This document shows positions 1-61,997 of a stretch of 64,000 nt of DNA, one piece after another. The translations under genes were made by a program, and so were the position numbers. Positions within the stretch are counted from its first letter, which is position 1, and every line of letters begins with the position of its first letter. The notes beneath the pieces were generated by a model. That model saw only the letters and a program-made list of their open reading frames with translations, was not told the DNA's origin and made no database searches. Source of the stretch: an uncultured Alphaproteobacteria bacterium (lineage in GTDB: Bacteria; Pseudomonadota; Alphaproteobacteria; RF32; CAG-239); assembly GCA_910577095.1 (NCBI GenBank), contig CAJTLY010000002.1, forward strand, positions 957-64,956. The letters run 5' to 3'.

Positions 1-2
1 GT

Positions 3-12898: not shown

Positions 12899-12911
12899 AG
12901 AGACGAAGCAA

Positions 12912-13016: not shown

Positions 13017-13583
13017 TTAAGCGCAGCCGGTTCGCATACAAATGCGGTTAACGTCAAATCCCAGTTCATCGATAGCCCGCTGCCATTTCAGATCATCCCG
13101 GGTCTTGAACAACAGTTCCGGGGTCGGGTCGACCACCAGCCAGTTATTATAAATTATCTCGCTTTCCAGCTGTTTCGGACTCCAACTGCTGTAACCGAGC
13201 GCAATCAGATTGTAGCGCGGCCCCTTGCCGAAAGCGATATCGTTCAAAACGCCCAACGACGACGACACTGCAAACTGATCGTCAATCGGCAGCGTTCCCT
13301 CCTTGTCATAATCGCGGCTGTGCAGGACAAAACCGCGGATTTTTTCAAGCGGGCCGCCCTGATGCAAAATCACCGGCTCGGGCGGAGAAACCCGGGCGAC
13401 GTTAAACTGTCCCATCAAATCGGAAAAATAAAATTCTTTAAGCTGCTTGTTAACCATAAAGCCCATCGCGCCTTCCTGATTATGCATACAGATGTAGACA
13501 ACCGACTGCGCAAACAGGTCGTCGTCTACCTGAGGCATTGAAACCAGACACTTTCCGGTTAGATAATTATTGACCATTTTCAT
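13017..13583 (-). CDS. YqgE/AlgH family protein (UPF0301)
   Basis: LFAQSVVYICMHNQEGAMGFMVNK ... GGPLE ... FVLHS is a typical AlgH pattern. The start is ambiguous (13583 or 13577). Confidence 0.75.
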   Translation of the reverse strand: MKMVNNYLTGKCLVSMPQVDDDLFAQSVVYICMHNQEGAMGFMVNKQLKEFYFSDLMGQFNVARVSPPEPVILHQGGPLEKIRGFVLHSRDYDKEGTLPIDDQFAVSSSLGVLNDIAFGKGPRYNLIALGYSSWSPKQLESEIIYNNWLVVDPTPELLFKTRDDLKWQRAIDELGFDVNRICMRTGCA

Positions 13584-16782: not shown

Positions 16783-17850
16783 TCAAAGTTCTCCGCTTAA
16801 AAATTCGCTGAAAAACTCATTGAGCAGCAAATGCGCGCTGCCGTCCTCGCGGATTGCCCGCGCGACAAACGAGCGCAGACGGTTTTTCGGCACATAAATA
16901 CGGAAGTTGCGCGGTGCCGTACCGTCGGCGCCGATAACGCCGTCAAGCAGAAAGTCTTCTTCAATATACGGCGAAAGAATAATTTCCATGTTGGCAAAGC
17001 GGACAATACTGCGCGGCGGTACCCGCAGCTCGGGACGGGTAATAATATTCAACTGCCCTTCCAGCCCCGGAATGCTGTCCATCTGGTTATAATTGAGAAA
17101 ACGCACCTTGTTATATTCGCCGCCGTCCGAACTGACGGTACAGGACAAATAAAGCTCGCGGGCAATCACGTTGCTCTGATTATGGCCGCGTACCGCAAAA
17201 CTGATTTTCAGATATTTTTCCGGAGGCGAATCAATGCTGCTGGGATACAGAATATCGGCTTCGCTGTTTTCCAGAACCGCCAGCTGTTTGTCGGTCAGCA
17301 TCAAATCGATCTCCGCCTGCGGCCGGCGACCGAACATCCCTGCCAGCACCGAATAAGGCGCCGGAACATTGTTGGAGCCTGAACGAATATAAAAATTGTT
17401 GCCGATGGTGGTCATCAGCGGCGCCACTTCCGACTTCGGAATATAAGTGGCGACAAAACCGTCCCCGTTCTCGTCAACACTGACAATATGGTTGCGTACC
17501 CGGTTGTGGCTGGGGATTGTGCAACCGGAAATTGCATTTTCCAGCCAGCTTAAAAAACGATGCACGTTTTGCACTTTCATTTTGGCACGCGCAACGTCTC
17601 CGACCTCAATATTGCGAGAGCATTCCACTCCCCATATCAGCACCCCGCCCTCGGAATTTCCGAATCCCGAAATCGCTTTGGCCAGATTGCGGCGATCGTC
17701 TTTATGAAGCGCCGTTCCGTTTTTGCCCGAAGAATCGGCGCGTTTAAAGTCGAGGAACAATTCTTCCGTCTGCGAATTGACAATATATTCGTCAATCGCT
17801 TCCTCTCCGAAATAAATCAGTTTTTGAAAAATATCCTCGGCGCGCGACAT
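16783..17850 (-). CDS. AlbA_2/Schlafen-type DNA-binding-domain protein with an unknown C-terminal half
   Basis: EELFLDFKR ... [20 protein letters not shown] is the AlbA_2 (formerly AAA_4) signature. ATG at 17850 with a GGAGGA RBS. Confidence 0.65.
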
Positions 17851-17918
17851 GGCCTTCCTCCGTTGCCTGTTATCTTTTCCCGGACAGTATAGCGGGGAAA
17901 TCTTAATTTTGATATAAT

Positions 17919-19184
17919 TTATTTTGCTTTCAGCATTGCGCAAAGTTCCTCATACCCGCAGTGGCCGCCGATATTGCCGACCAGAGCGTAAGTCGGCCGC
18001 GAAGAAAAGATATCAGTCGCACTGTTACGAATATCCTCAATCCCCACCTCGTCGATTTTGCGGATTGTTTCGGCAATCGGAATCGAACGGTTAAACAACA
18101 ACAACTGGCGCGCCAACTTTTCCGACACCGCCGACGAACTTTCCAACGACATCATGATCGCCGACTTCACCTGAGCCTTGGCACGTTTCAGTTCGGTTTC
18201 GCTGACCGGATGTTCGGCAATCTTTTTAATCTCGTCGGCAATCACCGGCAGCATTTTGTTAACCTGCTCGTTATCGGTCGCGGCAGCAATTCCGGTAAAA
18301 CCGGCACCGGTATAGAAAGTCGGAAAACTGTAAATCGAATAAACCAAACCACGCTTTTCACGAATTTCCTGAAACAACCGCGACGACATCCCGCCGCCCA
18401 AAATCGTTGACATCAGCATTGCCGCATAATAACGGTCATCAACATACGAATAGCCGTCAAAACCCAAAACCACCTGAGCTTGTTCCGTATCACGCATTTC
18501 GGCAAAATACCCCCCGGTATAAAGCTGCCGGTCCGCCACAAACGACGTTTTGGGCTGAAGACCGCCCAGCCTTTTTTTCACCATCTCGACCAACGACCGG
18601 TGATCAATGTTGCCGACCGCGCAAAAAACCATATTTTCGGCAGCATAATTGGTACTCATATACTGCCGCAGCTCTCGGGCACCGAAACTGCGCACCCGTT
18701 CCGCGGTTCCGAGAATCGGACGTCCCATCGCCTGTCCGGCAAAGGCCTGCGCCTGCATATAATCAAAAACAATATCTCCCGGGTCATCATAAGTCTGTTT
18801 GATTTCCTGCACCACCACTTCACGCTCTTTAAGCAGTTCGTCTTCGGCAAATTGCGGCGAAGTAATCAACTCACACAGCACATCGACCGCCAACTCGGCA
18901 TCGTCTTTCAGCATTTTGGCATAAAAAGCAGTAAATTCGCGGGAAGTGTAAGCGTTGGTCTGACCGCCGACGTTTTCGATATCTTCGGAAATTTCCGCCG
19001 CCGTACGGCTGGCGGTTCCCTTAAACACCATATGCTCCAAAAAATGGGAAACGCCGTTATTGTCTTCCTGTTCACAGGCAGACCCGGTTTTGACCCAAAT
19101 GCCGAGTGATACGGTTTCGTATTGAGGATATTTGAGACTGACCACTCTTAATCCGTTTTGAAGAACGCTGATTTCCGGCTTCAT
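17919..19184 (-). CDS. M16-family zinc peptidase
   Basis: HFLEHMVFKGT is an inverted zincin HxxEH motif. The length is typical for the family. Confidence 0.85.
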   Translation of the reverse strand: MKPEISVLQNGLRVVSLKYPQYETVSLGIWVKTGSACEQEDNNGVSHFLEHMVFKGTASRTAAEISEDIENVGGQTNAYTSREFTAFYAKMLKDDAELAVDVLCELITSPQFAEDELLKEREVVVQEIKQTYDDPGDIVFDYMQAQAFAGQAMGRPILGTAERVRSFGARELRQYMSTNYAAENMVFCAVGNIDHRSLVEMVKKRLGGLQPKTSFVADRQLYTGGYFAEMRDTEQAQVVLGFDGYSYVDDRYYAAMLMSTILGGGMSSRLFQEIREKRGLVYSIYSFPTFYTGAGFTGIAAATDNEQVNKMLPVIADEIKKIAEHPVSETELKRAKAQVKSAIMMSLESSSAVSEKLARQLLLFNRSIPIAETIRKIDEVGIEDIRNSATDIFSSRPTYALVGNIGGHCGYEELCAMLKAK

Positions 19185-24003: not shown

Positions 24004-26769
24004 TTAAAATTTATACTTGGCGTTAATCAAGCCTGTATGGTCTTGGTAATCCTGACGGAATTTGCCTTCATAACCAAGCGAGAGTTCGACACTATCATTG
24101 ACTTCCGCTGTTACACCGGCACCAAATTCCATACCGAAACGGTCAAGAGCTTCTCCATTTACGGTATAAGCAGAACCGTTTGCCAAAGTTACAACCGAAT
24201 TAACATCATCGTTCATCAGGTCATAAGTGGCGGCAATGCGTGCTTCCGGTTTGATATTCATACCGTTAGACAACTCCCAAGATTTGCTGACTTTCGCTCC
24301 GATGACACCGGTTAAAATATCGCTGTCATTGGCAGAAACACGCTGATCGGCAGAATCTTTGTAAGCATCTTGTTTGATGTGAACATAACGCAATCCGGCT
24401 TCCGGTGTAATACCCAAGCCGTTGATGTTCATATCATAACCGGTCATTGCCTGCAAACCAAAGGTTTCGACATCATAGTCAGCTTTGACACCAACTCCGG
24501 CAACACTCTTCTTTTCTTCATAGTCAGACCAGCCGTAGGTTGCGATACCGTTTACATACCAATTAGACGGTTTGTACTCACCATACAGGATGGCCGTATG
24601 TGTATCAACATCCGTATCACGCATGAAACCATCTATATCGGTGTGGGTATAAGCATAACCAATACCAACTTTGGTATCATCGGTTACAAACTTCTCAGCA
24701 CCGAAGGCAATACCGTTAGAATCTGCATCAAAGCCCTTCGCCTTGGATGTATCGTCCAGTTTGGATTTATTAAACAAGCCCTGAACCCACATCGCACCAC
24801 GTTTGAAAATATTGTCGCCGGAAGCCATACCTTCGCCACCGGTTGAGATTGAACCGCCGGTTAAACGGGTGCTGACTGCACCAAAGACCTGATTAGCTGT
24901 TTCAGTCTGGGTTTTCTGAACCATCGGAGCAACTTCCGGAGCAACGGCAGTCAAAGCGTCAACATAAGCTTTCTGCCCAGCAGCACTGGTGCTGTTGGAA
25001 AGCTGTGCCAGTTTTTCCGTAACGGCGGCAGCAACCGGGGAGCTGTTTGAAGCATTGACGCTGTCCCATGCCTCGGCTGTTCCGGCATTATTGGCAGAAC
25101 CACCGGCATCAACAACAGCATCCGTGGCAGAACCGACAGAAGTAACTTCAAAAGTTCCGTCGCCATTGTCCGTAAATTCATAACGGGAATTTTGGCTTAG
25201 ATTTGCAAATTTGCCTTCAACCTCTGCTTCGGCAGCATCGGCACCGTTAAATAATTTAAAAGTAGCTGTTTCGCCTTTAGCCAAAGCGGCACTGTTTAAG
25301 GTCATATTCAAATTTGTGCCGTTTTCGCTGATTTTGATATAATTGGCTTTGATTTTGCCATAGGTATCTTTATCGGTTACGGTAAAGGCTAAAGTTGAAT
25401 TATCGGCAAAAATGACACCTTCGCCATCGGCTTTATCACCGCTTGAATACAGTGTTTTGTCGCCAATATCCAGCGTTGCACCATTGCCGACCTGAACTGT
25501 CGTAATTGTATCAGTGGGCTCTTTGTCAAATGTCAGAGTTCCCTTGTTGATGGCTAAAATGTCTAAAGCTCCGATATCGCCGCTGATTGCATTATTTAAA
25601 GAGTGGCTGTTTTCAAAAATCAAGCTGACGTCTTCAACATTACCGTCAATTTTGGCGTTTGAGTTCTGAAAATGAATCTTGCCACGGTCATCACCGTTAA
25701 TATTGGCAACTAACTTGCCGCCCAAATTAATTCTGGTATTGTTATCATAAACATTAAGCGTGGCTTTCTGAGCCTGGCTCATATCTTCTGTAAACGCTTT
25801 GGCAAACAATGTAGAACCTGAAGCAATATTAAGCTCTGTCCCGTTAGCAATTTTTATATTGCCTACGGAAGATATTTCCGCAGAAGAGCCACTGACATTT
25901 ACCGTCCCGCCAGTAATATTTATGTTGCCGCTTGCCGGTTTGCCGTCCTCGCTTTGATAATCACCGCCTCTTATTATTGACGAATCTTTAAGAGAGATTG
26001 TGCCGCCGCTGATATTTATATCACCAGTTTCTCCGTCATGGAATATTGCGGAACCGTTTTCCAACATAAACTCTCCACCGCTAATATCCAAATCTCCAGA
26101 ATTTTCGCGTCCCAAAGAACTTTCATTCATTTTAAACGTACCGCCAGAAACAGTCATTGCAGCACCTTTCTGGGAATTGTCTCCGTCTGACATAGCCGGA
26201 TAGGTACTGATATTGGAATCATTCATTTCAAATGTTCCGCCCGAAATATTAAATTGGCTGCCGTCATCAGCATTGCCATATATAAAGATTTCGCCAGTAT
26301 CCAGCTTTATCGTGCCGCTGCTGATATCTGCTTCTTTAGCGTTCAGCGTTGAGCGCCATCCGGCTCCGTTCTCTTGTTTTAGCGTCAATTCTCCGCCCGT
26401 TTGGGTATATTTGCCGTCAACAAACATAAAAGGCTTTTCAGTCTCATCTGTCGCATCTGAATTGATTACCGACAAAGAGGCATTATCTGCCAGAGAGACA
26501 TTTCCGCTAACATTCAAGGTTTTGGAAACATCGACCTCATCGGCTTCTTCTTCCACGATTGCCTGAGTTTTTACATCTAATGAGGCTGTTCCTGATAAAT
26601 TTATGTCTCCCGAGTGTGAAAGCTGAGTATCCGAGCGCTCTACAACATAGCTTCCCGATGTTAGATTGGTTGCATCCGCCGGAAGATTTTCCGCATAAGC
26701 ATTATGGCCGCAAGTCAGCGCCACCAATGCCATTGTCATTAATAAAGTTTTTTTCATACGATTAAACAT
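24004..26769 (-). CDS. autotransporter outer-membrane protein (beta-helical passenger plus C-terminal barrel)
   Basis: Signal peptide. Repeated I(S/T)GGTF.(M/L)N.S units. Barrel ending in INAKYKF. Confidence 0.85.
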   Translation of the reverse strand: MFNRMKKTLLMTMALVALTCGHNAYAENLPADATNLTSGSYVVERSDTQLSHSGDINLSGTASLDVKTQAIVEEEADEVDVSKTLNVSGNVSLADNASLSVINSDATDETEKPFMFVDGKYTQTGGELTLKQENGAGWRSTLNAKEADISSGTIKLDTGEIFIYGNADDGSQFNISGGTFEMNDSNISTYPAMSDGDNSQKGAAMTVSGGTFKMNESSLGRENSGDLDISGGEFMLENGSAIFHDGETGDINISGGTISLKDSSIIRGGDYQSEDGKPASGNINITGGTVNVSGSSAEISSVGNIKIANGTELNIASGSTLFAKAFTEDMSQAQKATLNVYDNNTRINLGGKLVANINGDDRGKIHFQNSNAKIDGNVEDVSLIFENSHSLNNAISGDIGALDILAINKGTLTFDKEPTDTITTVQVGNGATLDIGDKTLYSSGDKADGEGVIFADNSTLAFTVTDKDTYGKIKANYIKISENGTNLNMTLNSAALAKGETATFKLFNGADAAEAEVEGKFANLSQNSRYEFTDNGDGTFEVTSVGSATDAVVDAGGSANNAGTAEAWDSVNASNSSPVAAAVTEKLAQLSNSTSAAGQKAYVDALTAVAPEVAPMVQKTQTETANQVFGAVSTRLTGGSISTGGEGMASGDNIFKRGAMWVQGLFNKSKLDDTSKAKGFDADSNGIAFGAEKFVTDDTKVGIGYAYTHTDIDGFMRDTDVDTHTAILYGEYKPSNWYVNGIATYGWSDYEEKKSVAGVGVKADYDVETFGLQAMTGYDMNINGLGITPEAGLRYVHIKQDAYKDSADQRVSANDSDILTGVIGAKVSKSWELSNGMNIKPEARIAATYDLMNDDVNSVVTLANGSAYTVNGEALDRFGMEFGAGVTAEVNDSVELSLGYEGKFRQDYQDHTGLINAKYKF

Positions 26770-28049: not shown

Positions 28050-30281
28050 TTACTTTGTTATTGTATCAAATATTTCCTTAAATTCTACATATTCATTATA
28101 TAATTTTTCAATATTTTCTTGTTTTTTAAGAAAATTAATTAATTTTTCAATATCGTGTTTTTTTGTATTCGTGTATGTTTCAATATCTCCCAATTTTAAA
28201 ATAAAAATATACCGTTTTCTCAATGCATTCATTTCACCAATAATCTTATCATAAACAGATGTTTTATTTTTCTTTAGAGATTCCATCACTTGGTTACATT
28301 TTACTTTAGAATACAGGATGAATTCTAAAGTCTTTACTAACTCATTAATATTACTTTTTAAATTTTCATTATTTTGTTCTAAGTCACTCTTTATCCGAGG
28401 TAATAAAGATATAACATTCTTTTTACCATTTACATCATCATATTTCAGGCTAACCTGTTTAGATAAAAATTGCTTTTCTTCAGCTAGCAATTGTTTATTA
28501 CTACTACTTAAAAACTCCTCTATATTATCTAGATCACCAATAAAATAGTTATCAATTTTAAACTTATTTAAGAAGTTGTGCCATATTTGGTAGTTCCTTT
28601 TTCCATTGATTTGCAGTATTTCTATATTACTTACATCAATATTATTTATTTTAGAATAAATGTTTAAATAGCTTCTAAAAACATATTCATCAGCAATTCC
28701 CTCAACAAGAATGACTTTATCGGCAAAGAAAATTCTGGATGAATTTGTTGTTTCTAATATTTTCATTAAATCTTTATCATTTAGTGTATTTGTATTGATC
28801 GATGTCGCTACCTTTGTAAAACATCCCTGATAAGTATAAAATCTATTTATGCTTTTAACATTTTCATTGGAAATAAAATAAGGTGAATGTGTCGCAATAA
28901 TTATTTGAGTTCCGTAAGATTTTTTAATATCTAATAATAATTCCACAAAAGCTTTTTGCATTTTAGGATGCATATGCAATTCGGGTTCATCAATAAGTAT
29001 TACTGCTCCCTCACTAATTGTATCACTACAAAACAATAAAATAAAATATATAAAAACCCTTTCTCCCGAACTCAAAGCATCAAAAGAAACTTCATTATTA
29101 TTTTTTACAAAAATAAAATATACTTCACTACCGTTTTCTCCTGACTTTGATAGCTTAAGCTTTAGATTTAGATAATTTTCCAAATATGGACTTATTTTCT
29201 TAAATATTTTATTTTTACTATAATCTGTATCTTTTACAAATTCAGCTTTTAACTTTCCCAAACACAGATCAAAAAGAGTAACAATATAAGATCCTGTAGA
29301 AATGTTTACCTTATAATCTTCATTAAAGGCCATAGAAATAGCAACATTATAATCATGAAAATCTTTTGATGATATTCCATAATTAGACTTTTCTGGAAAT
29401 GAAGTTTCATTTCCTCTTCGAATATCTAAAGATAAAAAATGAGGTTTATATGGAAAATTTTTAATATACTTACTTTTAGGAACTTTCCTGAATTTACTGG
29501 TCAAGCTATGATTATGAAAAAACACCAATGCATGAATTAACTGGTAGTTTTTTAAATATTTTATTACAGTTTCTGCGATAAATTTTCTACTTTTTTCTCT
29601 TTCTGAATTTTTTGGAAAATATTCGAATAAAACTTTCTTATTTATTAAAGAAAGAGGAATAAAAATATTCTGTGTTTTATTAAAATTTTCACATAAAATC
29701 TCAAGAGATCGGAAGAAATCCTTATTAATATCTTTAGAGTTCTCTTTTGAATAGTTTTGAGCTAAACATTTAATATCATCTTTATTTTTTAGAATATTTC
29801 GAATATATTTTCTATCTGTTGCATCCAAAGCTATAACTAGAAAAACAACACTATCAAAATTTTCATTTTCTACCGAGATTCTTTCATTTACTTTGAAAAC
29901 TGGGTTGATAATATTATTCATTGAATATTCAGCTTCTGAAAAATTTTTTTTGATTCTTTTATAATTTACATCAATTTTTTTTCCTAAATGCCCTTTTTTG
30001 TCTTCTAAAATTTTCTCATACCTTTCTAGCATTCTTTTTTGTCTGGTATAATTTGATAATGTATGTTCATAGTTTGTTGAAATTTCATAATGTTTTATAA
30101 GAATATACTTGAATATATAAGTTATTACTTTTAACAGATTTGTTTTTCCAGTCCCATTGGCCCCGACATTAATGCTAATTTCATTGTTTCCATATAAGTT
30201 AATATATGAATCTTTTAATTTCTTCTCTTCTATATAAGGAAATGAATATGCATTAGAGATTGCTATACATTTTAATTTCAT
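28050..30281 (-). CDS. OLD-family nuclease (ABC/AAA_15-type ATPase fused to Toprim)
   Basis: Walker A GANGTGKTN. Signature and Walker B LSSGERVFIYF...VILIDEPELHMHP, and H-loop ATHSP. C-terminal Toprim FFADKVILVEGIADE ... FIGDLDN. Confidence 0.8.
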   Translation of the reverse strand: MKLKCIAISNAYSFPYIEEKKLKDSYINLYGNNEISINVGANGTGKTNLLKVITYIFKYILIKHYEISTNYEHTLSNYTRQKRMLERYEKILEDKKGHLGKKIDVNYKRIKKNFSEAEYSMNNIINPVFKVNERISVENENFDSVVFLVIALDATDRKYIRNILKNKDDIKCLAQNYSKENSKDINKDFFRSLEILCENFNKTQNIFIPLSLINKKVLFEYFPKNSEREKSRKFIAETVIKYLKNYQLIHALVFFHNHSLTSKFRKVPKSKYIKNFPYKPHFLSLDIRRGNETSFPEKSNYGISSKDFHDYNVAISMAFNEDYKVNISTGSYIVTLFDLCLGKLKAEFVKDTDYSKNKIFKKISPYLENYLNLKLKLSKSGENGSEVYFIFVKNNNEVSFDALSSGERVFIYFILLFCSDTISEGAVILIDEPELHMHPKMQKAFVELLLDIKKSYGTQIIIATHSPYFISNENVKSINRFYTYQGCFTKVATSINTNTLNDKDLMKILETTNSSRIFFADKVILVEGIADEYVFRSYLNIYSKINNIDVSNIEILQINGKRNYQIWHNFLNKFKIDNYFIGDLDNIEEFLSSSNKQLLAEEKQFLSKQVSLKYDDVNGKKNVISLLPRIKSDLEQNNENLKSNINELVKTLEFILYSKVKCNQVMESLKKNKTSVYDKIIGEMNALRKRYIFILKLGDIETYTNTKKHDIEKLINFLKKQENIEKLYNEYVEFKEIFDTITK

Positions 30282-52912: not shown

Positions 52913-53098
52913 ATGATGGAATATATAAAAAGAAAACTGACCAAAACGAAAGATGATCAGGCTTGGAAAGACCAAATCGGCTATCCGCGCTATTATCAGG
53001 AAAACGGGCTTTTTATCAAAGAAACCGAAGACGGCGAAAAATTTGTCGTCACTTTGGATGAACAACACCAAGAGATTATCGTAGGAAAAGCAAAATGA
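52913..53098 (+). CDS. small protein, presumed antitoxin partner of the zeta-like kinase
   Basis: 61 aa, with an ATGA overlap with the downstream P-loop gene. No family recognised. Confidence 0.5.
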   Translation: MMEYIKRKLTKTKDDQAWKDQIGYPRYYQENGLFIKETEDGEKFVVTLDEQHQEIIVGKAK

Positions 53099-53967
53099 CA
53101 AGAAAGCGTCCCTGGATGGTAATTATCGCCGGTCCCAACGGCGCCGGAAAATCTACCTTTTACGATAAGGTTATCAAAGACGATCCGTTAATGAAAAATG
53201 CGCCGTTTATCAATTTGGACAACATTGCCAAAGATTTGTCCGCTCCGGATCAAGATCCGAACGACAACATGCTCAGCGCCGGCAAAATCACTTATGAAGA
53301 AGTGGAAAAGCACATTGAAAACCGCAGCAGTTTTGTGTACGAGACCACATCTTCGGGCAAAGTACATCTGCGTTTTATGGACGAAGCCCGCAAACAAGGT
53401 TTTAAAATCGCCACCGTGTTTATCGGCCTTTCGGATCCGCTGCTGTCTTATTATCGCGTCAAATCACGCGTGATCAACGGCGGTCACGACGTTCCGTATG
53501 AAGATATTATTCGCCGTTATCCCAAAATTATGAAGAACTTTCCGGAAATGCTGAAACGCAGCGACATTGCCGCCGTATTTGACAACTCTTCCCACGAACC
53601 ATACAAATTGATCTTTTTGATGGATGATAAAGCCTTTCGTATTTTTTATCAATACCCTTCCTGGCTGAAAGAATCCATCAGGGAACGCAAAACGCGCAAA
53701 GATATGGTTTTTGCCGCCGATGCTGTAGACGTCCATCGTTTAAACGATACTGAGTTACGTTTGATATCCGATCTGGCGTTTACTCCGTCTCTTGAAGAGC
53801 ATGCTTTTGACAATTATGTGAAAAAAATAATAGGTCCGTTACCGCTTGCCGAGAAAACAGCTTCATCTTTCCCCGGAGAAGGGGATATCTCGCCGGTTAC
53901 CAAGGAACAAATCAGGGAACAGGTCTCTAAATTATTTAACCAAGGAAAAAAGAGAGATCGGTTTTAA
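53095..53967 (+). CDS. zeta-toxin/COG4185-type P-loop kinase with a C-terminal extension
   Basis: VIIAGPNGAGKST Walker A and VINGGHDVPYEDIIRRY, typical of the COG4185/zeta family. Confidence 0.7.
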   Translation: MTRKRPWMVIIAGPNGAGKSTFYDKVIKDDPLMKNAPFINLDNIAKDLSAPDQDPNDNMLSAGKITYEEVEKHIENRSSFVYETTSSGKVHLRFMDEARKQGFKIATVFIGLSDPLLSYYRVKSRVINGGHDVPYEDIIRRYPKIMKNFPEMLKRSDIAAVFDNSSHEPYKLIFLMDDKAFRIFYQYPSWLKESIRERKTRKDMVFAADAVDVHRLNDTELRLISDLAFTPSLEEHAFDNYVKKIIGPLPLAEKTASSFPGEGDISPVTKEQIREQVSKLFNQGKKRDRF

Positions 53968-55900: not shown

Positions 55901-56106
55901 GTCGCGACTCCTTAATCTTTATCTGAGGCGATTATAATTTAAATTTTCATTAAAGACAACAAAGATATTTGTGTTGCAAATCGTTTGCAGACAAGCTAGC
56001 CTGAACAGGATCAACAAAAGTTTTGTTCCGACGACCGGCCAAAAATAAAAAAATAAATGAACCTTGTTGCACAAACTCTCGTTTTAGCTGATGTATGGAG
56101 GTTAAA

Positions 56107-56379
56107 ATGGACGATATTTCAAAACTGCTGCAGGAAGCGAAACCGCTTTATTTCGCCCGCAAAAAACGTCGCCGACGCATCACGGCCGTTTTCAGCATGC
56201 TGCTGGTTGCCGCCGGGCTCAGCCTCTCCGGACTGCGGCCCCCGGAAAGTGAAAACATATACTGGGCCGAAGCAATGTTAACGGCGGCCGACAGCCAAAT
56301 AACGGTGGCACAACGGGAATCCCTGATTGAAGACATGGGCTTGCCGGTGGATGAATTCGGGCTTTTGATGGCAGGATAG
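56107..56379 (+). CDS. small single-pass membrane protein (possible anti-sigma or accessory factor)
   Basis: GGAGG RBS before the ATG at 56107. RKKRRRR followed by a TM segment. Its stop abuts the sigma-factor start. Confidence 0.5.
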   Translation: MDDISKLLQEAKPLYFARKKRRRRITAVFSMLLVAAGLSLSGLRPPESENIYWAEAMLTAADSQITVAQRESLIEDMGLPVDEFGLLMAG

Positions 56380-56874
56380 ATGAAAGACATAATCAATAAA
56401 AACAAAGGGCTGATCAGAGCCGTCATCCGCAAGTTTACCGGTTCTTACAACGAGGACATTGAACAGGAAGTGTATATAAAAACCTGGCGCAACCTTGATA
56501 ATTATCACGAAGAAGGTAAATTTAAACAATGGATCGGAACCCTGACCGCCAATGTCTGCCGCGACTATTTCAAATCAAGGCAGTACGGCCAAAACAATGC
56601 AGAAGTCCGCGATCCGGAAATTCTCGAAACAATGCCGACCGGGAGTTCTCAAGAAGAGGCCGTGGACGCCAAGATACGGCAAAAACTGATTCTGAAAGCG
56701 GTGGACGAACTGCCGCCTAAAATGCGCAAAGTAATTATTTTGTACGAGTTTGAAGAATTGAGCCTGGAACAAATTGCGCAAAAAACCGGCGTTCCGGCAG
56801 GTACCGTTAAATCGCGCCTGTTTAACGCCAGACAAATTTTAAAACAAAAACTCAGTTATTTAAAAGGAGAGTAA
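56380..56874 (+). CDS. ECF (group IV) sigma-70 factor
   Basis: Region 2 (EDIEQEVYIKTWRNL) and region 4 (LSLEQIAQKTGVPAGTVKSRLFNAR). Confidence 0.85.
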   Translation: MKDIINKNKGLIRAVIRKFTGSYNEDIEQEVYIKTWRNLDNYHEEGKFKQWIGTLTANVCRDYFKSRQYGQNNAEVRDPEILETMPTGSSQEEAVDAKIRQKLILKAVDELPPKMRKVIILYEFEELSLEQIAQKTGVPAGTVKSRLFNARQILKQKLSYLKGE

Positions 56875-56877
56875 AAC

Positions 56878-57438
56878 ATGAAAAACAAATTTTTAACCAT
56901 TGCCTGCGCCGCCATGCTGATCACCGGCGTTGCAGCCAACGCCGCCGATAACGAACCGATGCCGATCCGCGACCGCCCGACTCCGGAAATGATGGAAGCA
57001 AAACTGGCAGACCGTTTGCAATTGAACAGCGACCAAAGAAAAGTCATACGGGAACGCCGTGAACAGGACCAGGCGGAAATGCGCCAGCTGATGGAAAAAA
57101 TGAAAGAAATCCGCAACGAAATGAATCGCATCCGTCAGGCAAACATGGAAGCTTTTGAAGCTCAGCTTACTCCGGAACAGAAAGCCGAATTTGACAAGAT
57201 TAAGGCCGAGCGCAAAGCTCATCATACGGAAAGAATGGGAAAAAGAAAAATGCGTCATATGAGAGAAATGCCGCATATGAAAGACATGCCGCATGACATG
57301 CCGCCGATGGCCGGGGAAATGAGAATGCCGGAACCTCCGGAAGAACCCAACCCGGTATTGACCGGCGATACGCCCTCCCCGGTTGACGCGACCGTAATGC
57401 CGGACGTTTCTGCAGTGACAGAACCCGAAAGCAAATAA
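56878..57438 (+). CDS. Spy/CpxP/ZraP-family periplasmic protein with a Met/His-rich tail
   Basis: Signal peptide, LTxxQ-type motifs (LQLNSDQRK, LTPEQKAEF), and the tail HMREMPHMKDMPHDMPPMAGEMRMPEP. Confidence 0.7.
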   Translation: MKNKFLTIACAAMLITGVAANAADNEPMPIRDRPTPEMMEAKLADRLQLNSDQRKVIRERREQDQAEMRQLMEKMKEIRNEMNRIRQANMEAFEAQLTPEQKAEFDKIKAERKAHHTERMGKRKMRHMREMPHMKDMPHDMPPMAGEMRMPEPPEEPNPVLTGDTPSPVDATVMPDVSAVTEPESK

Positions 57439-57450: not shown

Positions 57451-57482
57451 AAAAAATCCCGGTTTTTACCGGGATTTTTTTT
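57451..57482. terminator. bidirectional intrinsic terminator
   Basis: AAAAAATCCCGG-ttttta-CCGGGATTTTTTTT. Confidence 0.65.
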
Positions 57483-57504: not shown

Positions 57505-58743
57505 TTACTTGCGCCGGCGTTTCGGCGCTGCCGTCAGTTTGGAAAACAGATAAACAATCCCCGATACCAGGGTTTTGCGTTCCCTAACCTTCAACGAACT
57601 CCACCAATTGAGCAAACGCCGGAAAATACCGGGCTCTTTTTGCGGCGCCGGATGCTTCTTTTCTTTTTCGAAAACCGGGGATTCTTCCAACGACAATTTC
57701 TCGACCTTGCCGCGGAAAGGTTCCAAAATTTCACGAATATCGTTATCGGCAACATAGGCACCGTGTATTCGTTTTAATCCGCCTGCCGCATCCAAAAACA
57801 AGGCGTCGCCGCGGCCGAGCAGCTTTTCGGCGCCGGTCGTGTCCAAAACAGTACGGGAATCGGCAGAGGCTGCCGTTTTATAAGCCAGACGGGAAGGAAA
57901 ATTCGCTTTCAACACACCGGTTACCACATCAACCGACGGCCGCTGGGTGGCCAGAATCAGATGAATCCCGCACGCCCGGGCTTTTTGCGCCAACAAACGG
58001 ATATATTTTTCAACTTCGGGACTGACGGTGACCAAATCGGCAAATTCATCGATAACGCAAACAATATAGGGCATCAGGCCGACCCGTAAATGATATTCGT
58101 CAATATTGCGGCAATGGCTTTCCTCCAACTGCCGGTAGCGCCGCTCCATTTCGTCGACCAGATAAGCCAAAACCGCCACGGCATCCTTATTTTCGGTAAC
58201 CACCGGCGTTAACATGTATTGCTGATCGTTATAAATCGAAAATTCAATGCGCTTGGGGTCAATCAGAACCAGTTTGAGTTCGGAAGTTTCTTTGGCCAAA
58301 ATCAGCGACAAGATAAAGGTATTGAGCCCGACCGACTTCCCGGACCCGGTCGTACCCGCGACCAACAAATGCGGCATTTTCGACAAGTCGGCAATCACCG
58401 GTTTGCCGGCAACGTCGGTACCTAGGCAAAGCGGCAGTTTTCCTTTAAAATTTTTAAAAGCCTCACTGTCAACCAAGGTTTTAAAATCAACCGTCCGCGG
58501 CTGCCGGTCCGGTATTTCGAACCAAACATTTCCCGAATCCGGCACTTTTTCAACGTCAACCGAAGAAACGCCCAGCTCACGGGCAATGTCTTCCCGCGCG
58601 CTCATAATGTTTTTTATTTTCGTACCCGGCGCCGGCGCAAACTCAATCAAACGCAGCAACGGCCCGTTTTTTTCGCCGACGATGTTACCGCCGATTCCGT
58701 AATGGGTTAAAATTTCTTCCAAAGCGGCACTCATTTTTTCCAT
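57505..58743 (-). CDS. FtsK/SpoIIIE-family ATPase, motor (alpha/beta) domains only
   Basis: PHLLVAGTTGSGKS, VIDEFADL and ILATQRPSVDVVTGVLKANFPSRLAYK...DSRTVLD..GAEKLLGRGD. No N-terminal TM segments, and no winged-helix gamma domain is recognisable. The tail is basic and hydrophobic. Confidence 0.8.
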   Translation of the reverse strand: MEKMSAALEEILTHYGIGGNIVGEKNGPLLRLIEFAPAPGTKIKNIMSAREDIARELGVSSVDVEKVPDSGNVWFEIPDRQPRTVDFKTLVDSEAFKNFKGKLPLCLGTDVAGKPVIADLSKMPHLLVAGTTGSGKSVGLNTFILSLILAKETSELKLVLIDPKRIEFSIYNDQQYMLTPVVTENKDAVAVLAYLVDEMERRYRQLEESHCRNIDEYHLRVGLMPYIVCVIDEFADLVTVSPEVEKYIRLLAQKARACGIHLILATQRPSVDVVTGVLKANFPSRLAYKTAASADSRTVLDTTGAEKLLGRGDALFLDAAGGLKRIHGAYVADNDIREILEPFRGKVEKLSLEESPVFEKEKKHPAPQKEPGIFRRLLNWWSSLKVRERKTLVSGIVYLFSKLTAAPKRRRK

Positions 58744-58745
58744 CC

Positions 58746-59312
58746 TTACAATTTTGACAGTTTCACGGCAATTTCACGTGACAATTCGCCGATCAGGGCG
58801 CTTTCTTTCTCCGCCAGATCTTCATAGCTTTCGGTCAACGGGGCGGTGAGACGGCTGCGTTCGCGGGCAGCGACACGGCCGTTTTTATATACGGTCCACC
58901 AAGCGTCAATTTCTATTTTCTGTCCTAAAACGGCATCCATTTTATTGACTTCGACCGTCACCGTATAAGTGAAGTTTTCGCTGACCAGGGTTTTGAACTT
59001 AACCACCGACTTGGGCAGATAAACGGAAATGTCATCGGCCAACACTCGTGAAAACGAACTCGACAACGGTTCTCCCCAACGATAAAACTCCGACATTTTC
59101 AATTCCGAAGAGCCGGCTTCCATCGTCACGATCTGCGGCCGATCAAGATATCTCGGAATAAACACTTCCTCCACCCCGATGTCCATCCGTCGCTGCGAAA
59201 CCGGGCGCACATCGCCTTCCAGGGCTTTGAGCTGATAAAAACGCGACGGGCTGCTGGTTCCGACACAGGCGGCAACCAACAACAACAGGACTGACAAAAA
59301 CAAATTTTTCAT
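58746..59312 (-). CDS. PqiC/YmbA-type (DUF330) transport-auxiliary lipoprotein
   Basis: Lipobox LLLVAAC followed by SPSRFYQL, typical of the family. Confidence 0.75.
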   Translation of the reverse strand: MKNLFLSVLLLLVAACVGTSSPSRFYQLKALEGDVRPVSQRRMDIGVEEVFIPRYLDRPQIVTMEAGSSELKMSEFYRWGEPLSSSFSRVLADDISVYLPKSVVKFKTLVSENFTYTVTVEVNKMDAVLGQKIEIDAWWTVYKNGRVAARERSRLTAPLTESYEDLAEKESALIGELSREIAVKLSKL

Positions 59313-59314
59313 GA

Positions 59315-60082
59315 CTAATACCTTCCTTTTCCTCTTAATAACGATTCCGGATGTCTTTCTATATAATCAGCAAAATTGTTTAATGACTTGGCGGCACCGG
59401 AAATATTTAACATTGCCCGGTTAAAATTGCGCAAAGTTTCCGGCACGTTCTGGGTTTGCTGCGGAATTTTGGAAAACTGCTGCAAAACGCCGGCAAGCTG
59501 CGGAACAATCTCATTATTCAGCGAATCGAGAAATTTATTCATTTTGGTAACCGTTTGCTTGAGCGGTATTTCCTGAAATCCCTGTGACAATTCTGCCAAC
59601 GGCGACAACACGGTCGGAATTTCGGGGACGCGTTCTCCCCTGCTGCGGTAAACAGCCGGGGTTCCCGCCGGCATCATTTCAAGTTCGATCATCAGCTGTC
59701 CGGTCAGGTAGTTGAGGTTATTGAGCCGCGCGCGCAATCCTTTCTCCACCAGTTCGTTCAATATTTGGCGACGGGTCTCGTTAGGCAATGTCGGGTTAAA
59801 GTTTTGACTGTTAAACGCCACATATACCGGAATACTGAATTCGGTATCTTCCATATCGGTAATCAGATCGATTTTATAAACCTTTCCGATATTCACGCCC
59901 TTGAAGACCACCGGCGATCCGACATCCAGACCTTTTATCGACTCTGAAAAGTACATCACCACCATGCTGCGGGTGTCACCGCGGACTTTGTCTGCCACAA
60001 ACATGCCGATCGTGGCGACAAACAAAATAATTCCGCAGATGAGAAACAAACCGATTAATTTGCTTTTTGGTTTTTTACGCAT
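59315..60082 (-). CDS. MCE-domain protein (MlaD/PqiB-like, single MCE)
   Basis: N-terminal TM, then SIKGLDVGSPVVFKGVNIGKV. Confidence 0.8.
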   Translation of the reverse strand: MRKKPKSKLIGLFLICGIILFVATIGMFVADKVRGDTRSMVVMYFSESIKGLDVGSPVVFKGVNIGKVYKIDLITDMEDTEFSIPVYVAFNSQNFNPTLPNETRRQILNELVEKGLRARLNNLNYLTGQLMIELEMMPAGTPAVYRSRGERVPEIPTVLSPLAELSQGFQEIPLKQTVTKMNKFLDSLNNEIVPQLAGVLQQFSKIPQQTQNVPETLRNFNRAMLNISGAAKSLNNFADYIERHPESLLRGKGRY

Positions 60083-60836
60083 TTTCTTTGGCACCTCTGG
60101 TTAAAAAATTATAAACTTTTTGGTTAGGCGGGTCTTTCAACAGTTGGTTGGGGTTGCCGTAACCCTGAATTGATTTGGTTTCGCCGTCAAGAAAAATCGA
60201 ATTGCTGCCGACGGCAAAAATCGACGCCAATTCGTGAGTCACGATCACAATCGTGGTTCCGAGGCTGTGATTGATGTCCAAAATCAGATCATCCAACAAT
60301 TTGGAACTGATCGGATCCAAACCGGCCGACGGTTCGTCAAAATAGACGATTTCCGGATCCAGCGCCAACGCCCGCGCCAAACCGGCGCGTTTTTTCATTC
60401 CGCCGCTGATTTCCGAAGGATAAAAATCCTCAAAACCGGCCAAACCGACCAACGCCAGTTTCAGTGACACCAACTCGCTTACCTCGCGCTCGGAATAGTC
60501 CGTATATTGTTGCAACGGCAAGGCAATGTTTTCGGCCAGCGTCATTGAACTGAACAAAGCGCCGCTTTGATACAAAATGCCGCAACGCTGCATAATTTCG
60601 TCGCGCACCGGCGGCGCGGCTTTGGTAAAATCGACACCGTCAATAAAAAAATTTCCCCGCTGCGGCGGCACCAACCCGGTCAATACGCGCAGTAACGAAC
60701 TTTTGCCGCACCCCGAGCCGCCCATGATAATGAAGACGTCCCCTTTATTGACATTAAAACTGATATCTTTCAGCAGCACAAAATCACCGTATCCGACGGT
60801 AAGGTTTTTAACCGCAATTTGCACTTCCGCCGTCAT
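60075..60836 (-). CDS. ABC ATPase of the Mla type (MlaF-like)
   Basis: GGSGCGKSS, SGGMKKRAGLARAL and VYFDEPSAGLDP. ATGA overlap with the permease gene. Confidence 0.85.
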   Translation of the reverse strand: MTAEVQIAVKNLTVGYGDFVLLKDISFNVNKGDVFIIMGGSGCGKSSLLRVLTGLVPPQRGNFFIDGVDFTKAAPPVRDEIMQRCGILYQSGALFSSMTLAENIALPLQQYTDYSEREVSELVSLKLALVGLAGFEDFYPSEISGGMKKRAGLARALALDPEIVYFDEPSAGLDPISSKLLDDLILDINHSLGTTIVIVTHELASIFAVGSNSIFLDGETKSIQGYGNPNQLLKDPPNQKVYNFLTRGAKENA

Positions 60837-61951
60837 ATTCCCAACACCTCGCAAACAACGGTAATAATTCCGGTCATCACAATCATCCAGACAATCGCCG
60901 AAACCACCGCTTTGGTGGTGGCCACACCGACGCTGTCGGCATTGCGCCCGCAATAAACGCCGTAATAACAACCGCACACCGCTATGACGACGCCAAAAAC
61001 CAGACCGTGAAAAATACCGACCAGAAAATTATTGAGACTGATGGCGTTGACCGACAGTTCCCAATATTTCTGAAACGGAATTCCGAGCATCGTCACCCCG
61101 ACAAAGCCGCCGCCGAACATCCCCATAAAATCGGCCCACATCACCAAAATCGGCATCGTCAGCACCAGCGCCATCAGCCGCGGCAACACCAGAAAATCGA
61201 CCGGTGCAATTCCCATTGTTTTGAGAGCGTCAATTTCCTCGTTGACCTGCATGGTACCGATGGTGGCGGCATAGGAAGCGCCGGTACGCCCGGCCATGAT
61301 AATGCCGGTCATGATGGCGCCCATAATCCGGGTCATGCCGATGGTTACCAAACTGGCAACATAAATTTCGGCACCGAAAGTCTTGAGCTGGACCGCACCG
61401 ACAAACGCCAGAATCAGCCCGACCATAAAACTGATCAGCGACACGATCGGCAACGCCTTGTAGCCGCAATCCTCGAGAGCAAACAGGAAGTCGACCCGAC
61501 GCATCACCGACATGCCGTTAACAAAATTCCAAAAAGAAACCACCGTTTTCCACAAAAATCCGCCGCCTTTGCGGATGCCTTCCGCGGTCGCAAGCCCCCA
61601 ATTGCCGACTCTTTCCAACAATCCGACGGTTTCATCGCTTTCGGCAACCGGTTTGCGGTCAACCGAAAAAGCCAATTCCAGCAATTGTTTCAAACCGGGC
61701 GGTAATTGTTGCAGTCGCAACGGTATTTGCCGTCTGCGACTGATTTTTTGCAACTGAAACAAAATGACCAGCAGCGTCGAATCCCATTCGCCGAGACCGG
61801 CCGCCTGCACTTCGACGCTCTCTGTATTTTTACGGCTTGCCGCCTCATACAGGCCGCTGATCGCCGCATTGTCGTCATATTTCAGATAATCGCCGTTCAG
61901 TTCCAGTTTGAGAACGGTTCCGTCGACGGTATATTTCAATTTTGTTTCCAT
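60833..61951 (-). CDS. MlaE-family permease with an N-terminal STAS-like domain
   Basis: About 110-aa N-terminal soluble domain, then an MlaE core (GAEIYVASLVTIGMTRIMGAIMTGIIMAGRTGASYAA.IGTMQVNEEIDAL). Confidence 0.8.
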   Translation of the reverse strand: METKLKYTVDGTVLKLELNGDYLKYDDNAAISGLYEAASRKNTESVEVQAAGLGEWDSTLLVILFQLQKISRRRQIPLRLQQLPPGLKQLLELAFSVDRKPVAESDETVGLLERVGNWGLATAEGIRKGGGFLWKTVVSFWNFVNGMSVMRRVDFLFALEDCGYKALPIVSLISFMVGLILAFVGAVQLKTFGAEIYVASLVTIGMTRIMGAIMTGIIMAGRTGASYAATIGTMQVNEEIDALKTMGIAPVDFLVLPRLMALVLTMPILVMWADFMGMFGGGFVGVTMLGIPFQKYWELSVNAISLNNFLVGIFHGLVFGVVIAVCGCYYGVYCGRNADSVGVATTKAVVSAIVWMIVMTGIITVVCEVLGI

Positions 61952-61997
61952 TTTTTTATCCTACCGACAATTTATTCACAATCCGTATTTCCGTCAA

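Follow-up and report, generated by a model that had tools for sequence, protein, structure and literature searches.

The window, i.e. the whole stretch of 64,000 nucleotides that was analysed, contains a chain of five minus-strand genes (57505-61951) joined by overlaps or very short spacers, as confirmed by re-reading the ORF coordinates. Mobile and defence islands are present elsewhere in the window. The features of the locus are:

61969-61997, minus strand: candidate sigma-70-like promoter, TTGACG-17-TAAATT, located in the 46-nt gap that separates mlaE/mpcE from the MATE gene and proposed from a consensus match only (9/12)
60833-61951, minus strand: MpcE-like ABC permease of the MlaE type, 372 aa, extended at its N-terminus by a STAS-like segment; Pfam MlaE 6.7e-69, TIGR00056
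60075-60836, minus strand: MlaF-type ABC ATPase (MpcF-like), 253 aa, overlapping mlaE by ATGA; Pfam/NCBIfam ABC_tran/MlaF
59315-60082, minus strand: single-MCE-domain protein (MpcD-like), 255 aa, with an alternative GTG start at 60094; Pfam MlaD 9.8e-10
58746-59312, minus strand: PqiC-like outer-membrane lipoprotein (ABC_trans_aux, MpcA-like), 188 aa; Pfam PF03886 1.7e-29, NCBIfam pqiC 4e-10
57505-58743, minus strand: mini-FtsK gene, 412 aa as given, or 409 aa if read from 58734, the likelier start; Pfam FtsK_alpha and FtsK_SpoIIIE
57712-58743, minus strand: FtsK alpha-beta motor, residues 1-344, assigned by alignment and structural match to FtsK motors
57631-57711, minus strand: variable K/E/P-rich linker, residues 345-371, predicted to be disordered (pLDDT below 50 at residues 356-369)
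57508-57630, minus strand: conserved C-terminal tail, residues 372-412, a predicted peripheral membrane anchor (family alignment, AF2)
57451-57480, bidirectional: intrinsic terminator hairpin separating the ftsK-like gene from the LTXXQ gene that converges on it, from sequence reading and RNA folding

The initial annotation had described the five chained genes, and all five ORFs are present where it placed them. Its reading of the first three junctions was likewise accurate. The mlaE gene (60833-61951) shares an ATGA with mlaF, which starts at 60836; mlaF ends at 60075 and overlaps the MCE gene by 8 nt from ATG 60082, or by 20 nt from the alternative GTG 60094; and the MCE gene, ending at 59315, is separated by 2 nt from the pqiC-like start at 59312. 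The 2-nt gap proposed between the pqiC-like gene (end at 58746) and the ftsK-like gene holds from ATG 58743 and fails from a second ATG at 58734. The latter has a better-placed Shine-Dalgarno sequence (AAGGA, 8 nt upstream), and homologues that are 94-95% identical (409 aa) begin at the equivalent site. Judged from the sequence, 58734 is the likelier start, and the spacer would then be 11 nt. The terminator hairpin (57480-57451) comprises 13 bp followed by a T-run, and its RNA fold has a free energy of −21.4 kcal/mol (z = −3.3). Contigs from RNA-labelled mouse-gut runs, which are of low depth and only tentatively RNA, span all four gene junctions and likewise the MATE/mlaE junction. Read-through out of the MATE gene is possible because these contigs cross the MATE/mlaE spacer.

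The first four genes form one operon for a MlaE-family permease, a MlaF ATPase, an MCE-domain protein and a lipoprotein of the PqiC type. A Mla-Pqi chimeric (Mpc) system encoded by mpcEFDA has been described in Brucella abortus (EMBO J 2025; PMC12436622); it has its own ATPase and pulls down as a stable four-protein complex. The window shares with it the four components, their order and an alphaproteobacterial host. As in the STAS-fused Brucella permease MpcE, the MlaE-type permease appears to bear an N-terminal STAS domain, although the match (Pfam STAS_2, 8.6e-6, 26.3 bits) falls under the Pfam threshold of 29.2. The MCE protein has an N-terminal transmembrane anchor and, again as in Brucella, a long C-terminal extension resembling the C-terminal part of PqiB (positions 282-502 of the NCBIfam PqiB model, 3e-24). 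In both systems the final gene encodes a PqiC-like lipoprotein, with LVAAC read as the lipobox here. The window differs in its shorter MCE protein (255 aa versus 331 aa in Brucella) and in the fifth, unrelated gene downstream of the lipoprotein gene. That the window proteins are homologous to those of Brucella was deduced via shared families rather than by direct alignment. On this basis, genes 1 to 4 match an mpcE-F-D-A-like envelope lipid-transport operon of the already described Mpc type, and they can now be annotated as such.

Textbook FtsK combines an N-terminal divisome anchor, the alpha-beta motor and, for KOPS-dependent direction and the switching on of XerCD, the gamma domain. The product of the fifth gene contains the complete alpha-beta motor and begins within the alpha domain. 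A motor-only architecture had been proposed at the outset, and the Pfam matches to FtsK_alpha and FtsK_SpoIIIE, with the motor residues in place, bear it out; neither FtsK_4TM (PF13491) nor FtsK_gamma (PF09397) was matched in Pfam, and the tail sequence is unrelated to gamma. The long linker of canonical FtsK is absent as well. By tblastn, no gamma or N-terminal domain was found anywhere in the window, no gamma domain was found in four further loci (L001-L004), and, consistent with the first reading, no split-off N-domain gene is encoded nearby in the window.

The motor is approximately 40-44% identical to those of P. aeruginosa and E. coli FtsK (PDB FtsK, 1.7e-90 by phmmer), and its model superimposes on DNA-bound PaFtsK (6T8B/6T8G) with TM-scores of 0.80-0.84 (Foldseek). 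It retains the entire ordered alpha-beta motor of the E. coli and P. aeruginosa structures (PDB 2IUS, 2IUU, 6T8B), except for a deletion of about 25 residues in a beta-domain loop. Residues mapped through alignments from published work (PMC7321959) include Walker A (G130-S137), Walker B (D232-E233), the arginine finger R256, the alpha-ring residue K42 and the DNA-contact loop residues R268, S270, V271, G276, K279 and R297. Thus, both Walker motifs, the arginine finger R620 and R632, S634, V635, G640, K643, R661 and K377 of PaFtsK are conserved. Across the family, the arginine finger and seven of the nine PaFtsK DNA contacts are invariant. The remaining two, R380 and the loop-I residue K657 (Ser293 in the window protein), are replaced, each with an invariant lysine 1-4 residues away. 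Conjugative coupling and T7SS ATPases (TraB, TcpA, EssC/EccC) were considered as identities and rejected: they scored 55-101 bits versus 301 for FtsK, the protein has a single ATPase domain, and the neighbourhood is of a housekeeping type.

Beyond a linker that differs in length and sequence across the family, mini-FtsK carries a C-terminal tail that canonical FtsK lacks. An amphipathic, Trp-rich helix (IFRRLLNWWSSL) is followed by a basic turn (VRERK), a short hydrophobic helix (TLVSGIVYLFSKL) and a polybasic end (KRRRK). The basic, hydrophobic tail noticed earlier proved to be conserved in 52 family ORFs; W381 is invariant, R375, L384 and K390 are at least 90% conserved, and the motif occurs only once within the window. 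Structure prediction, which the initial annotation had suggested for the tail, gave a helix-turn-helix (AF2 helices 373-383 and 386-404, pLDDT 75-80) whose hydrophobic moment is very high. The first helix has <H> of 0.87 and muH of 0.84; the net charge is +11, and muH ranges from 0.65 to 0.85 across the family. In its C-terminal amphipathic helix behind a flexible linker the tail resembles the membrane-targeting helices of FtsA and MinD, and its hydrophobic moment matches or exceeds that of the E. coli FtsA helix (<H> 0.41, muH 0.61), for FtsA and MinD sequences that were entered by hand and not retrieved from a database. It differs from them in being longer and bipartite: a short hydrophobic helix comes second, and the end is strongly polybasic (+6 to +16). 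The tail is therefore predicted to be a peripheral membrane anchor. Alternatively, such a highly basic, Trp-rich segment could bind DNA or a protein partner.

Mini-FtsK is not an isolated case. More than 120 clusters of homologues of 400-436 aa were found, originating from uncultured gut Alphaproteobacteria sampled in mice, rats, the human gut, ruminants and termites. Among the 52 tail-bearing ORFs in the fetched loci, the 43 full-size complete ones encode 403-459 aa. Every member has a complete alpha-beta dsDNA-pump motor without the 4TM N-domain and without gamma. In the tree these proteins form a monophyletic family, and its long stem branch indicates substantial divergence from canonical FtsK. 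Mini-FtsK is a previously undescribed short form of FtsK that constitutes a clade-specific family and not a truncation. One of two earlier proposals, a radically minimised FtsK, is apt as a description since the family is conserved and the gene is not broken.

The other proposal, a functional pairing of FtsK with the MCE system, fared less well. Conservation of the five-gene linkage in relatives had been named as a check, and mini-ftsK lies behind a pqiC-like gene in only 5 of 24 assessable lineages (95%-identity groups), which belong to two neighbouring clades; the other 19 are unlinked. Elsewhere, the upstream neighbour is bamE (1-2 nt), DUF308 (19 nt) or a U32-peptidase-like gene (9 nt), and the remaining unlinked lineages have no same-strand gene close upstream. 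As the Mpc linkage is restricted to a minority of lineages, and Mpc is a self-sufficient four-gene system, a common MCE-FtsK machine is not supported. An FtsK-like protein is absent from the Brucella Mpc complex and is not a conserved Mpc component, and the literature searches returned no description of an MCE-FtsK pairing. With or without Mpc, the neighbourhood of mini-ftsK is constant (DUF308, MscS, an amino-acid permease and decarboxylase, Fe-ADH), which fits local rearrangement. Probably, the Mpc transporter and mini-FtsK are not one machine.

We consider it reasonably probable that the locus is an Mpc operon with an unrelated mini-FtsK gene at its 3' end, encoding a membrane-tethered DNA translocase with an SftA-like role in division. 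Through the tail, the motor would be held peripherally at the inner membrane, which is anionic, and six tails per hexamer would provide strong avidity. Lacking gamma, the motor would pump dsDNA without sequence-guided direction and, at the division site, might thereby clear chromosomal DNA or segregate it. In the window lineage, the place of mini-ftsK after the pqiC-like gene would entail co-transcription and probably translational coupling; this arrangement probably arose by local rearrangement within part of the family and is not taken to indicate a shared machine. By analogy with SftA, this is the most likely function of mini-FtsK. The Bacillus subtilis protein is an FtsK homologue without transmembrane helices, anchored to the membrane through an amphipathic helix, and acts at the division site (PMC9320952), a role only proposed for mini-FtsK, whose helix is a prediction. 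However, the SftA helix is N-terminal whereas the predicted anchor of mini-FtsK is C-terminal, and SftA is much larger, retains gamma and coexists with SpoIIIE. Their sequences show no specific relationship.

Whether mini-FtsK is the only FtsK of the cell or an accessory paralogue stands at roughly even odds, neither version quite reaching an even chance by itself. As a paralogue, mini-FtsK would act beside canonical FtsK in specialised or back-up DNA clearing, as SftA does beside SpoIIIE. The long stem, the equal distance to all canonical FtsKs and the presence of canonical FtsK in closely related gut alphaproteobacteria are in line with this; co-occurrence of the two forms was seen in none of the indirect tests, but these tests are weak. 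As the sole FtsK, it would have outlived a lost canonical ftsK (4TM plus gamma) as the only chromosome translocase, the tail replacing the N-terminal anchor, with segregation and dimer resolution proceeding without KOPS or gamma-dependent XerD activation.

Several searches for canonical ftsK in mini-FtsK organisms point to the sole-FtsK version. No contig match was found between 120 short-FtsK clusters plus 23 metagenome contigs (~6.8 Mb) and 120 canonical-FtsK plus 120 LolA clusters (~6.8 Mb), whereas the canonical-FtsK and LolA lists have 26 contig matches to each other; yet only about 1-3 co-located matches would be expected, so that the absence is weak evidence. Five short-FtsK protein accessions at NCBI were near none of 15 canonical ones. 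In a mouse-gut run (X2) with the window organism at 37x, no contig of equal depth save one at 33.9x matched canonical gut-alphaproteobacterial ftsK baits, but the baits need at least 80% nucleotide identity and missed even the window's own mini-ftsK. The flank of the 33.9x contig looks Bacteroidales-like. Canonical alpha-type ftsK does occur in these mouse-gut runs, but its depth varies independently of that of the window organism (ratios 1.0, 1.1, 0.2 and 0.36).

A relative with canonical FtsK (L206) has no mini gene at the syntenic DUF308-permease site, which also speaks for the sole-FtsK version. Against this, the mini-FtsK organisms are no closer to one another than L206 roughly is to them (decarboxylase 66-70%, permease 75-79%), and L206 retains canonical ftsK in a conserved hda-ftsK-lolA block. 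Moreover, the mini family is 42-45% identical to related canonical motors, which are 54-81% identical among themselves, and therefore looks like an old paralogy. A sole FtsK without gamma would also deprive XerCD-dif resolution of its usual activator. Tentatively, and with somewhat less assurance than for the window organism itself, mini-FtsK may be the only FtsK of the whole gut Alphaproteobacteria clade, with the anchor moved from the N-terminal 4TM domain to the C-terminal tail, gamma discarded, and chromosomes segregated and dimers resolved with neither KOPS-guided translocation nor XerD activation by gamma. It is less likely that, in addition, the tail serves to dock the pump on envelope machines, e.g. 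Mpc or BamE.

That the hexameric motor was recruited to MCE/Mpc or outer-membrane biogenesis as an energising or positioning subunit, docked by its tail, appears improbable. Mpc already possesses the MlaF ATPase and forms a four-protein complex in Brucella (PMC12436622), and the catalytic and DNA-contact residues of a dsDNA pump are strictly conserved, which adds to the minority linkage and the silence of the literature. What speaks for recruitment, and against our preferred explanation, is that the linkage, where present, is old and tight, judging from its persistence in two clades down to 59% identity for FtsK and 48-49% for PqiC, the junctions measuring −4 to +13 nt, with probable translational coupling. 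The predicted membrane binding of the tail would suit docking, and the separate lineage with bamE, another outer-membrane lipoprotein gene, 1-2 nt before mini-ftsK could hint at an envelope role. Hardly credible is a mobile-element or defence ATPase, be it a conjugative coupling protein (TraB/TcpA) or of the SspH or HerA type, as the domain-level PADLOC matches to SspH (183 bits) and mad8, the far lower-scoring NCBIfam and PDB matches to TraB, TcpA and EssC and the islands elsewhere in the window are set against chromosomal FtsK as by far the best match (301-307 bits), absence of partner genes nearby, ordinary GC content, a chromosomal neighbourhood stable across deep lineages and a vertical-looking family phylogeny.

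With the motor alone retained and a new, conserved, anchor-like tail added, the mini-FtsK family offers a natural test of how far the functions of FtsK are dispensable or can be re-engineered. Should the cells lack any other FtsK, there would be a proteobacterial lineage that divides with neither the N-domain of FtsK nor gamma, which would bear directly on how chromosome dimer resolution is coupled to septal DNA clearance. If it is a paralogue, mini-FtsK is a Gram-negative counterpart of SftA. Current NCBI names hide its difference from canonical FtsK: one member is labelled 'DNA translocase FtsK', while 'hypothetical protein' is the name given to three more.

The fifth gene of the cluster apparently encodes an undescribed FtsK variant that consists of the motor alone, lacks the gamma domain and carries a conserved, anchor-like tail at its C-terminus. 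No account of this mini-FtsK architecture, or of a pairing between FtsK and MCE proteins, was found in a non-exhaustive literature library. The gene is the last of five chained minus-strand genes, an arrangement described in the initial annotation and borne out by the ORF listing and the sequence itself:

60833-61951, minus strand: mlaE-like gene, 372 aa
60075-60836, minus strand: mlaF-like gene, 253 aa from the ATG, ATGA overlap with mlaE
59315-60082, minus strand: MCE gene, overlapping mlaF by 8 nt, or by 20 nt if the start is GTG 60094
58746-59312, minus strand: pqiC-like gene, 2-nt gap from the MCE gene
57505-58743, minus strand: ftsK-like gene, 2-nt gap from the pqiC-like gene

An AAGGA Shine-Dalgarno sequence is better placed for the second ATG of the ftsK-like gene (58734), and homologues with 94-95% identity (409 aa) begin at the equivalent ATG. 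Judged from these sequence features, the true spacer between the pqiC-like and ftsK-like genes is therefore probably 11 nt. A promoter-like TTGACG-17-TAAATT lies within the 46-nt spacer 5′ of mlaE, and the ftsK stop is directly followed by a 13-bp hairpin and its T-run. All four internal junctions are spanned by contigs of RNA-labelled mouse-gut runs (depth 2-6x, the runs being tentatively RNA), as is the spacer between the MATE gene and mlaE. These bridging contigs are consistent with a single transcript, short of proof. In mouse and rat gut strains (runs X2, X6 and X10), the A-run at 57475, on the 5′ side of the terminator hairpin, is one base shorter. The plus strand at 56095-57438 holds a small ORF and the genes of an ECF sigma factor (56380-56874) and of an LTXXQ/Spy-like periplasmic protein (56878-57438), which converge on the operon terminator. 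In the fetched locus L001 the sigma-LTXXQ pair is likewise syntenic; it may represent an envelope-stress module adjoining the lipid-transport operon.

Genes 1-4 are a system of an already known kind, the Mpc type, and include their own ATPase. According to Pfam and NCBIfam, gene 1 encodes an MlaE permease whose N-terminus matches STAS_2 below threshold, gene 2 an MlaF-type ABC ATPase, gene 3 a protein with one MCE domain that matches distal PqiB over its C-terminal two-thirds, and gene 4 an ABC_trans_aux/PqiC-like lipoprotein with a lipobox. In the Mpc system of Brucella, MpcE carries a STAS domain at its N-terminus, MpcA resembles PqiC and MpcD forms an elongated MCE 'needle'; only MpcE, MpcF and MpcD were pulled down with MpcA (PMC12436622).

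The view of gene 5 as a motor-only FtsK holds. Its sole Pfam domains are FtsK_alpha (profile positions 23-100) and FtsK_SpoIIIE, and the best matches among solved structures are the FtsK motors of P. aeruginosa (PaFtsK) and E. coli (E = 1e-90). The AlphaFold model (mean pLDDT 82) superimposes on DNA-bound PaFtsK with a TM score of 0.80-0.84; the alignments span about 365-375 columns, and the ordered target residues number 392-397. The modelled alpha-beta motor is so judged essentially complete, except for a beta-domain loop of about 25 residues that is deleted in mini-FtsK. Functional residues were mapped by combining the roles reported for PaFtsK (PMC7321959) with alignments to solved structures and to the family.

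PaFtsK residues (roles from PMC7321959), their window counterparts and conservation in the mini-FtsK family
R620 (arginine finger): R256, invariant
R632, S634, V635, G640, K643 (loop II, DNA contact): R268, S270, V271, G276, K279, invariant
R661 (loop I, DNA contact): R297, invariant
K657 (loop I, DNA contact): S293, not conserved; K289 nearby invariant
K377 (alpha-ring): K42, invariant
R380 (alpha-ring): N45, not conserved; adjacent K44 invariant

This pattern of conservation would be expected of a working dsDNA pump. A pseudogene is rejected in view of the strict conservation of the motor, and a defence or conjugation ATPase in view of a defence-system search (PADLOC) and the gene context.

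Mini-FtsK is restricted to one clade of uncultured gut Alphaproteobacteria. A homologue search brought up more than 120 clusters of proteins that are 400-436 aa long and 55-95% identical, each having the same pair of Pfam domains. The few named homologues come from 'Alphaproteobacteria bacterium' MAGs and from one termite-gut MAG whose source label is Lactobacillaceae; the window sequence itself is present in mouse and rat gut metagenomes, whereas an exact search of an assembly index with the window protein gave no match. Carriers of mini-FtsK include the MAG that encodes MDR1694074 on an 829-kb contig and assembly GCA_965646365.1. Among the top matches in a library of 1.84 billion representatives, only three were short (402, 425 and 381 aa, with 72%, 57% and 53% identity), nearly all others being full-length FtsKs with about 40-50% identity. 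In a profile scan of genome contigs with the family alignment, the matches listed were all canonical FtsKs (38-48% identity), with no mini-FtsK among them; these matches supplied the baits L029 and L030. A family DNA pattern for YIVC[VI]IDEFADL, which among the fetched loci matched family loci only, identified 120 loci in metagenomes. The family tail was present in 52 ORFs from these loci, of which 43 full-size complete ones measured 403-459 aa. In the alignment, all members begin at the identical point in the alpha domain; therefore no N-terminal exon is missing and no frameshift has intervened. This common start rules out a truncated gene, and the N-terminal domain split off by a frameshift that the initial annotation had considered is absent, as tblastn across the window and the relatives' flanks revealed neither 4TM nor gamma domains.

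The same pattern also fetched separate FtsK-like ORFs of roughly 500-580 aa from metagenomes (L106, L125, L112, L155, L087, L158, L127 and others). With 38-43% identity and an N-terminal extension of just 40-80 aa, they look like another TM-less FtsK-like group. On a single contig, L180, an in-frame fusion (799-3057, minus strand) joins a 391-aa portion of a DsbD-like protein, 59% identical to the product of window 13805-14974, to mini-FtsK from residue 51; it reflects either a chimeric assembly or a genuine deletion or rearrangement.

The basic, hydrophobic C-terminal tail noticed at the outset proved to be a conserved module of the family. The motor ends at about residue 344 and is followed by a K/E/P-rich linker that varies across the family (about 25-35 residues), the module itself (roughly G-[FIW]-[FW]-R-R-x-L-x-W-W-S-S-L-[RK]-x-R-[ED]-[RK]-K-x-I-[IV]-x-G), a hydrophobic stretch of about 12-15 residues and a polybasic C-terminus. 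In the family alignment W381 is invariant, and conservation reaches at least 90% at R375, L384 and K390. AlphaFold predicts helices at 373-383 and 386-404 (pLDDT 75-80). As to whether the tail forms an amphipathic helix or a transmembrane segment, helix 1 is predicted to be amphipathic, and helix 2 is, in most members, neither long nor apolar enough for an ordinary transmembrane span. Across the family, helix 1 has a mean hydrophobicity of 0.7-1.3 and a hydrophobic moment of mostly 0.65-0.85, both higher than in the membrane-targeting helix of E. coli FtsA (0.41 and 0.61, computed here), and the net charge of the tail ranges from +6 to +16. A canonical transmembrane tail anchor is rejected in view of the only 15 or so hydrophobic residues of helix 2, its 19-mer Kyte-Doolittle mean of mostly below 1.6 and the basic clusters on both of its sides. 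We infer that the tail acts as a peripheral anchor, lying in-plane or shallowly inserted on anionic membranes; in a hexamer, anchoring would be multiplied six-fold. Possibly, the tail instead binds DNA or a protein partner. Peripheral membrane anchoring would have a precedent in SftA of B. subtilis, a TM-less FtsK homologue that is held by an amphipathic helix, there N-terminal, and recruited to the Z-ring (PMC9320952).

The functional MCE-FtsK pairing put forward in the initial annotation was not borne out: genes 1-4 are a known system, and most relatives lack the linkage. When complete family ORFs were clustered at 95% identity, a pqiC-like gene lay directly upstream on the same strand, with a junction of -4 to +13 nt, in 5 of the 28 groups (the window type, L172, L097, L001 and L146). 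Another 19 had at least 600 bp of upstream sequence without such a gene, and 4 were not assessable. Relative to the window, identity in the linked groups falls to 59% for FtsK and 48-49% for PqiC. In a neighbour-joining tree they fall into two adjacent clades; most of the crown is unlinked, as is the basal clade. Linkage to the Mpc operon is thus only partly conserved, an outcome that, by the measure set in the initial annotation itself, refutes a dedicated MCE-FtsK system; the adjacency also goes beyond an accident of one genome.

Among the unlinked members, mini-ftsK follows a BamE-like lipoprotein gene by 1-2 nt in one deep lineage (L088, 2052-2504; L143, 1511-1963; L154, 3857-4312; 150 aa, judged by eye), the second outer-membrane lipoprotein gene to which mini-ftsK is appended. 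In L002 it lies 19 nt behind DUF308 and in L138 9 nt behind a U32-peptidase-like gene; in others the only gene upstream is divergently oriented. In linked and unlinked genomes mini-ftsK occupies the same chromosomal district, with DUF308, MscS, an amino-acid permease and Orn/Lys/Arg decarboxylase, and Fe-ADH. Together, the linkage pattern and this shared district point to a local rearrangement by which part of the family would have gained mini-ftsK at the 3′ end of the Mpc operon and would since have retained it there as an operon member.

Mini-FtsK is of moderate interest, and of higher interest if it is the sole FtsK of its genomes; whether it is that or an accessory paralogue is close to an even call. 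Co-occurrence was approached through NCBI accession proximity, contigs common to match lists, a LolA profile search for hda-ftsK-lolA blocks on mini-FtsK contigs, decarboxylase-cassette synteny and depth-signature baiting with L029 and L030. Coexistence with a canonical FtsK, about an evens proposition, is favoured by the abundance of canonical FtsKs (4TM, alpha, beta, gamma) in gut alphaproteobacterial MAGs. In addition, L206, which contains a canonical FtsK, shares DUF308/permease/decarboxylase synteny with the window and L002 and resembles these about as closely as they resemble one another (decarboxylase 66-70%, permease 75-79%, DUF308 34-58%). Moreover, the mini family shares only 42-45% identity with the motors of these gut alphaproteobacterial canonical FtsKs, among which identity is 54-81%.

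Loss of the canonical gene, leaving mini-FtsK as the sole FtsK, has much the same chance. At low power, a comparison of mini-FtsK contigs (about 6.8 Mb) with contigs that carry canonical FtsK or LolA (likewise about 6.8 Mb) revealed none in common; by contrast, the canonical-FtsK and LolA lists have 26 contigs in common. No neighbouring NCBI accessions linked mini-FtsK and canonical-FtsK proteins, again with low power. In the mouse-gut run X2, where the window organism reaches 37x, the ftsK baits retrieved ftsK fragments from many other bacteria and, within the low power of this approach, nothing alphaproteobacterial at 37x. An alpha-type canonical ftsK ('GKDIGG[E/K]NVY') occurs in mouse-gut samples, its depth not tracking that of the window organism, a comparison of low power (9.5 vs 9.5 in X1, 12.5 vs 11.5 in X10, 7.3 vs 37 in X2 and 4.9 vs 13 in X6). 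The depth match in X1 and X10, which suggested a second, canonical-type ftsK in the window genome, is contradicted by X2 and X6.

The canonical ftsK block itself is conserved in L205-L207 (HIT on the minus strand, DUF2066, AI-2E transporter, hda, ftsK, lolA, ankyrin; about 6500-13300). In L206 it adjoins the DUF308/amino-acid-permease/decarboxylase cassette, which also lies near mini-ftsK in L002 and the window.

Elsewhere in the window, a 743-aa OLD-family nuclease (28050-30281, minus strand; AAA_15/AAA_21 and OLD-like TOPRIM, Old/GajA/AriA-like in PADLOC) occupies a markedly AT-rich island (25% GC vs about 46-50% around it) and is probably a horizontally acquired defence gene. Positions 1-6000 are low in GC (34%), hold several ORFs without a family match, a Phage_integrase fragment (1678-2256, 192 aa) and a large serine recombinase (4287-5921, 544 aa), and look like what is left of a mobile element or prophage at the edge of the window. 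Candidate adhesins for the surface of this gut alphaproteobacterium are two large autotransporters, one of 1242 aa with Chlamydia-PMP-type repeats (9170-12898, plus strand) and one of 921 aa (24004-26769, minus strand). The window further encodes a zeta-toxin-like kinase of 290 aa (53095-53967, plus strand) and a Schlafen/AlbA_2-domain protein of 386 aa (16783-17943, minus strand).
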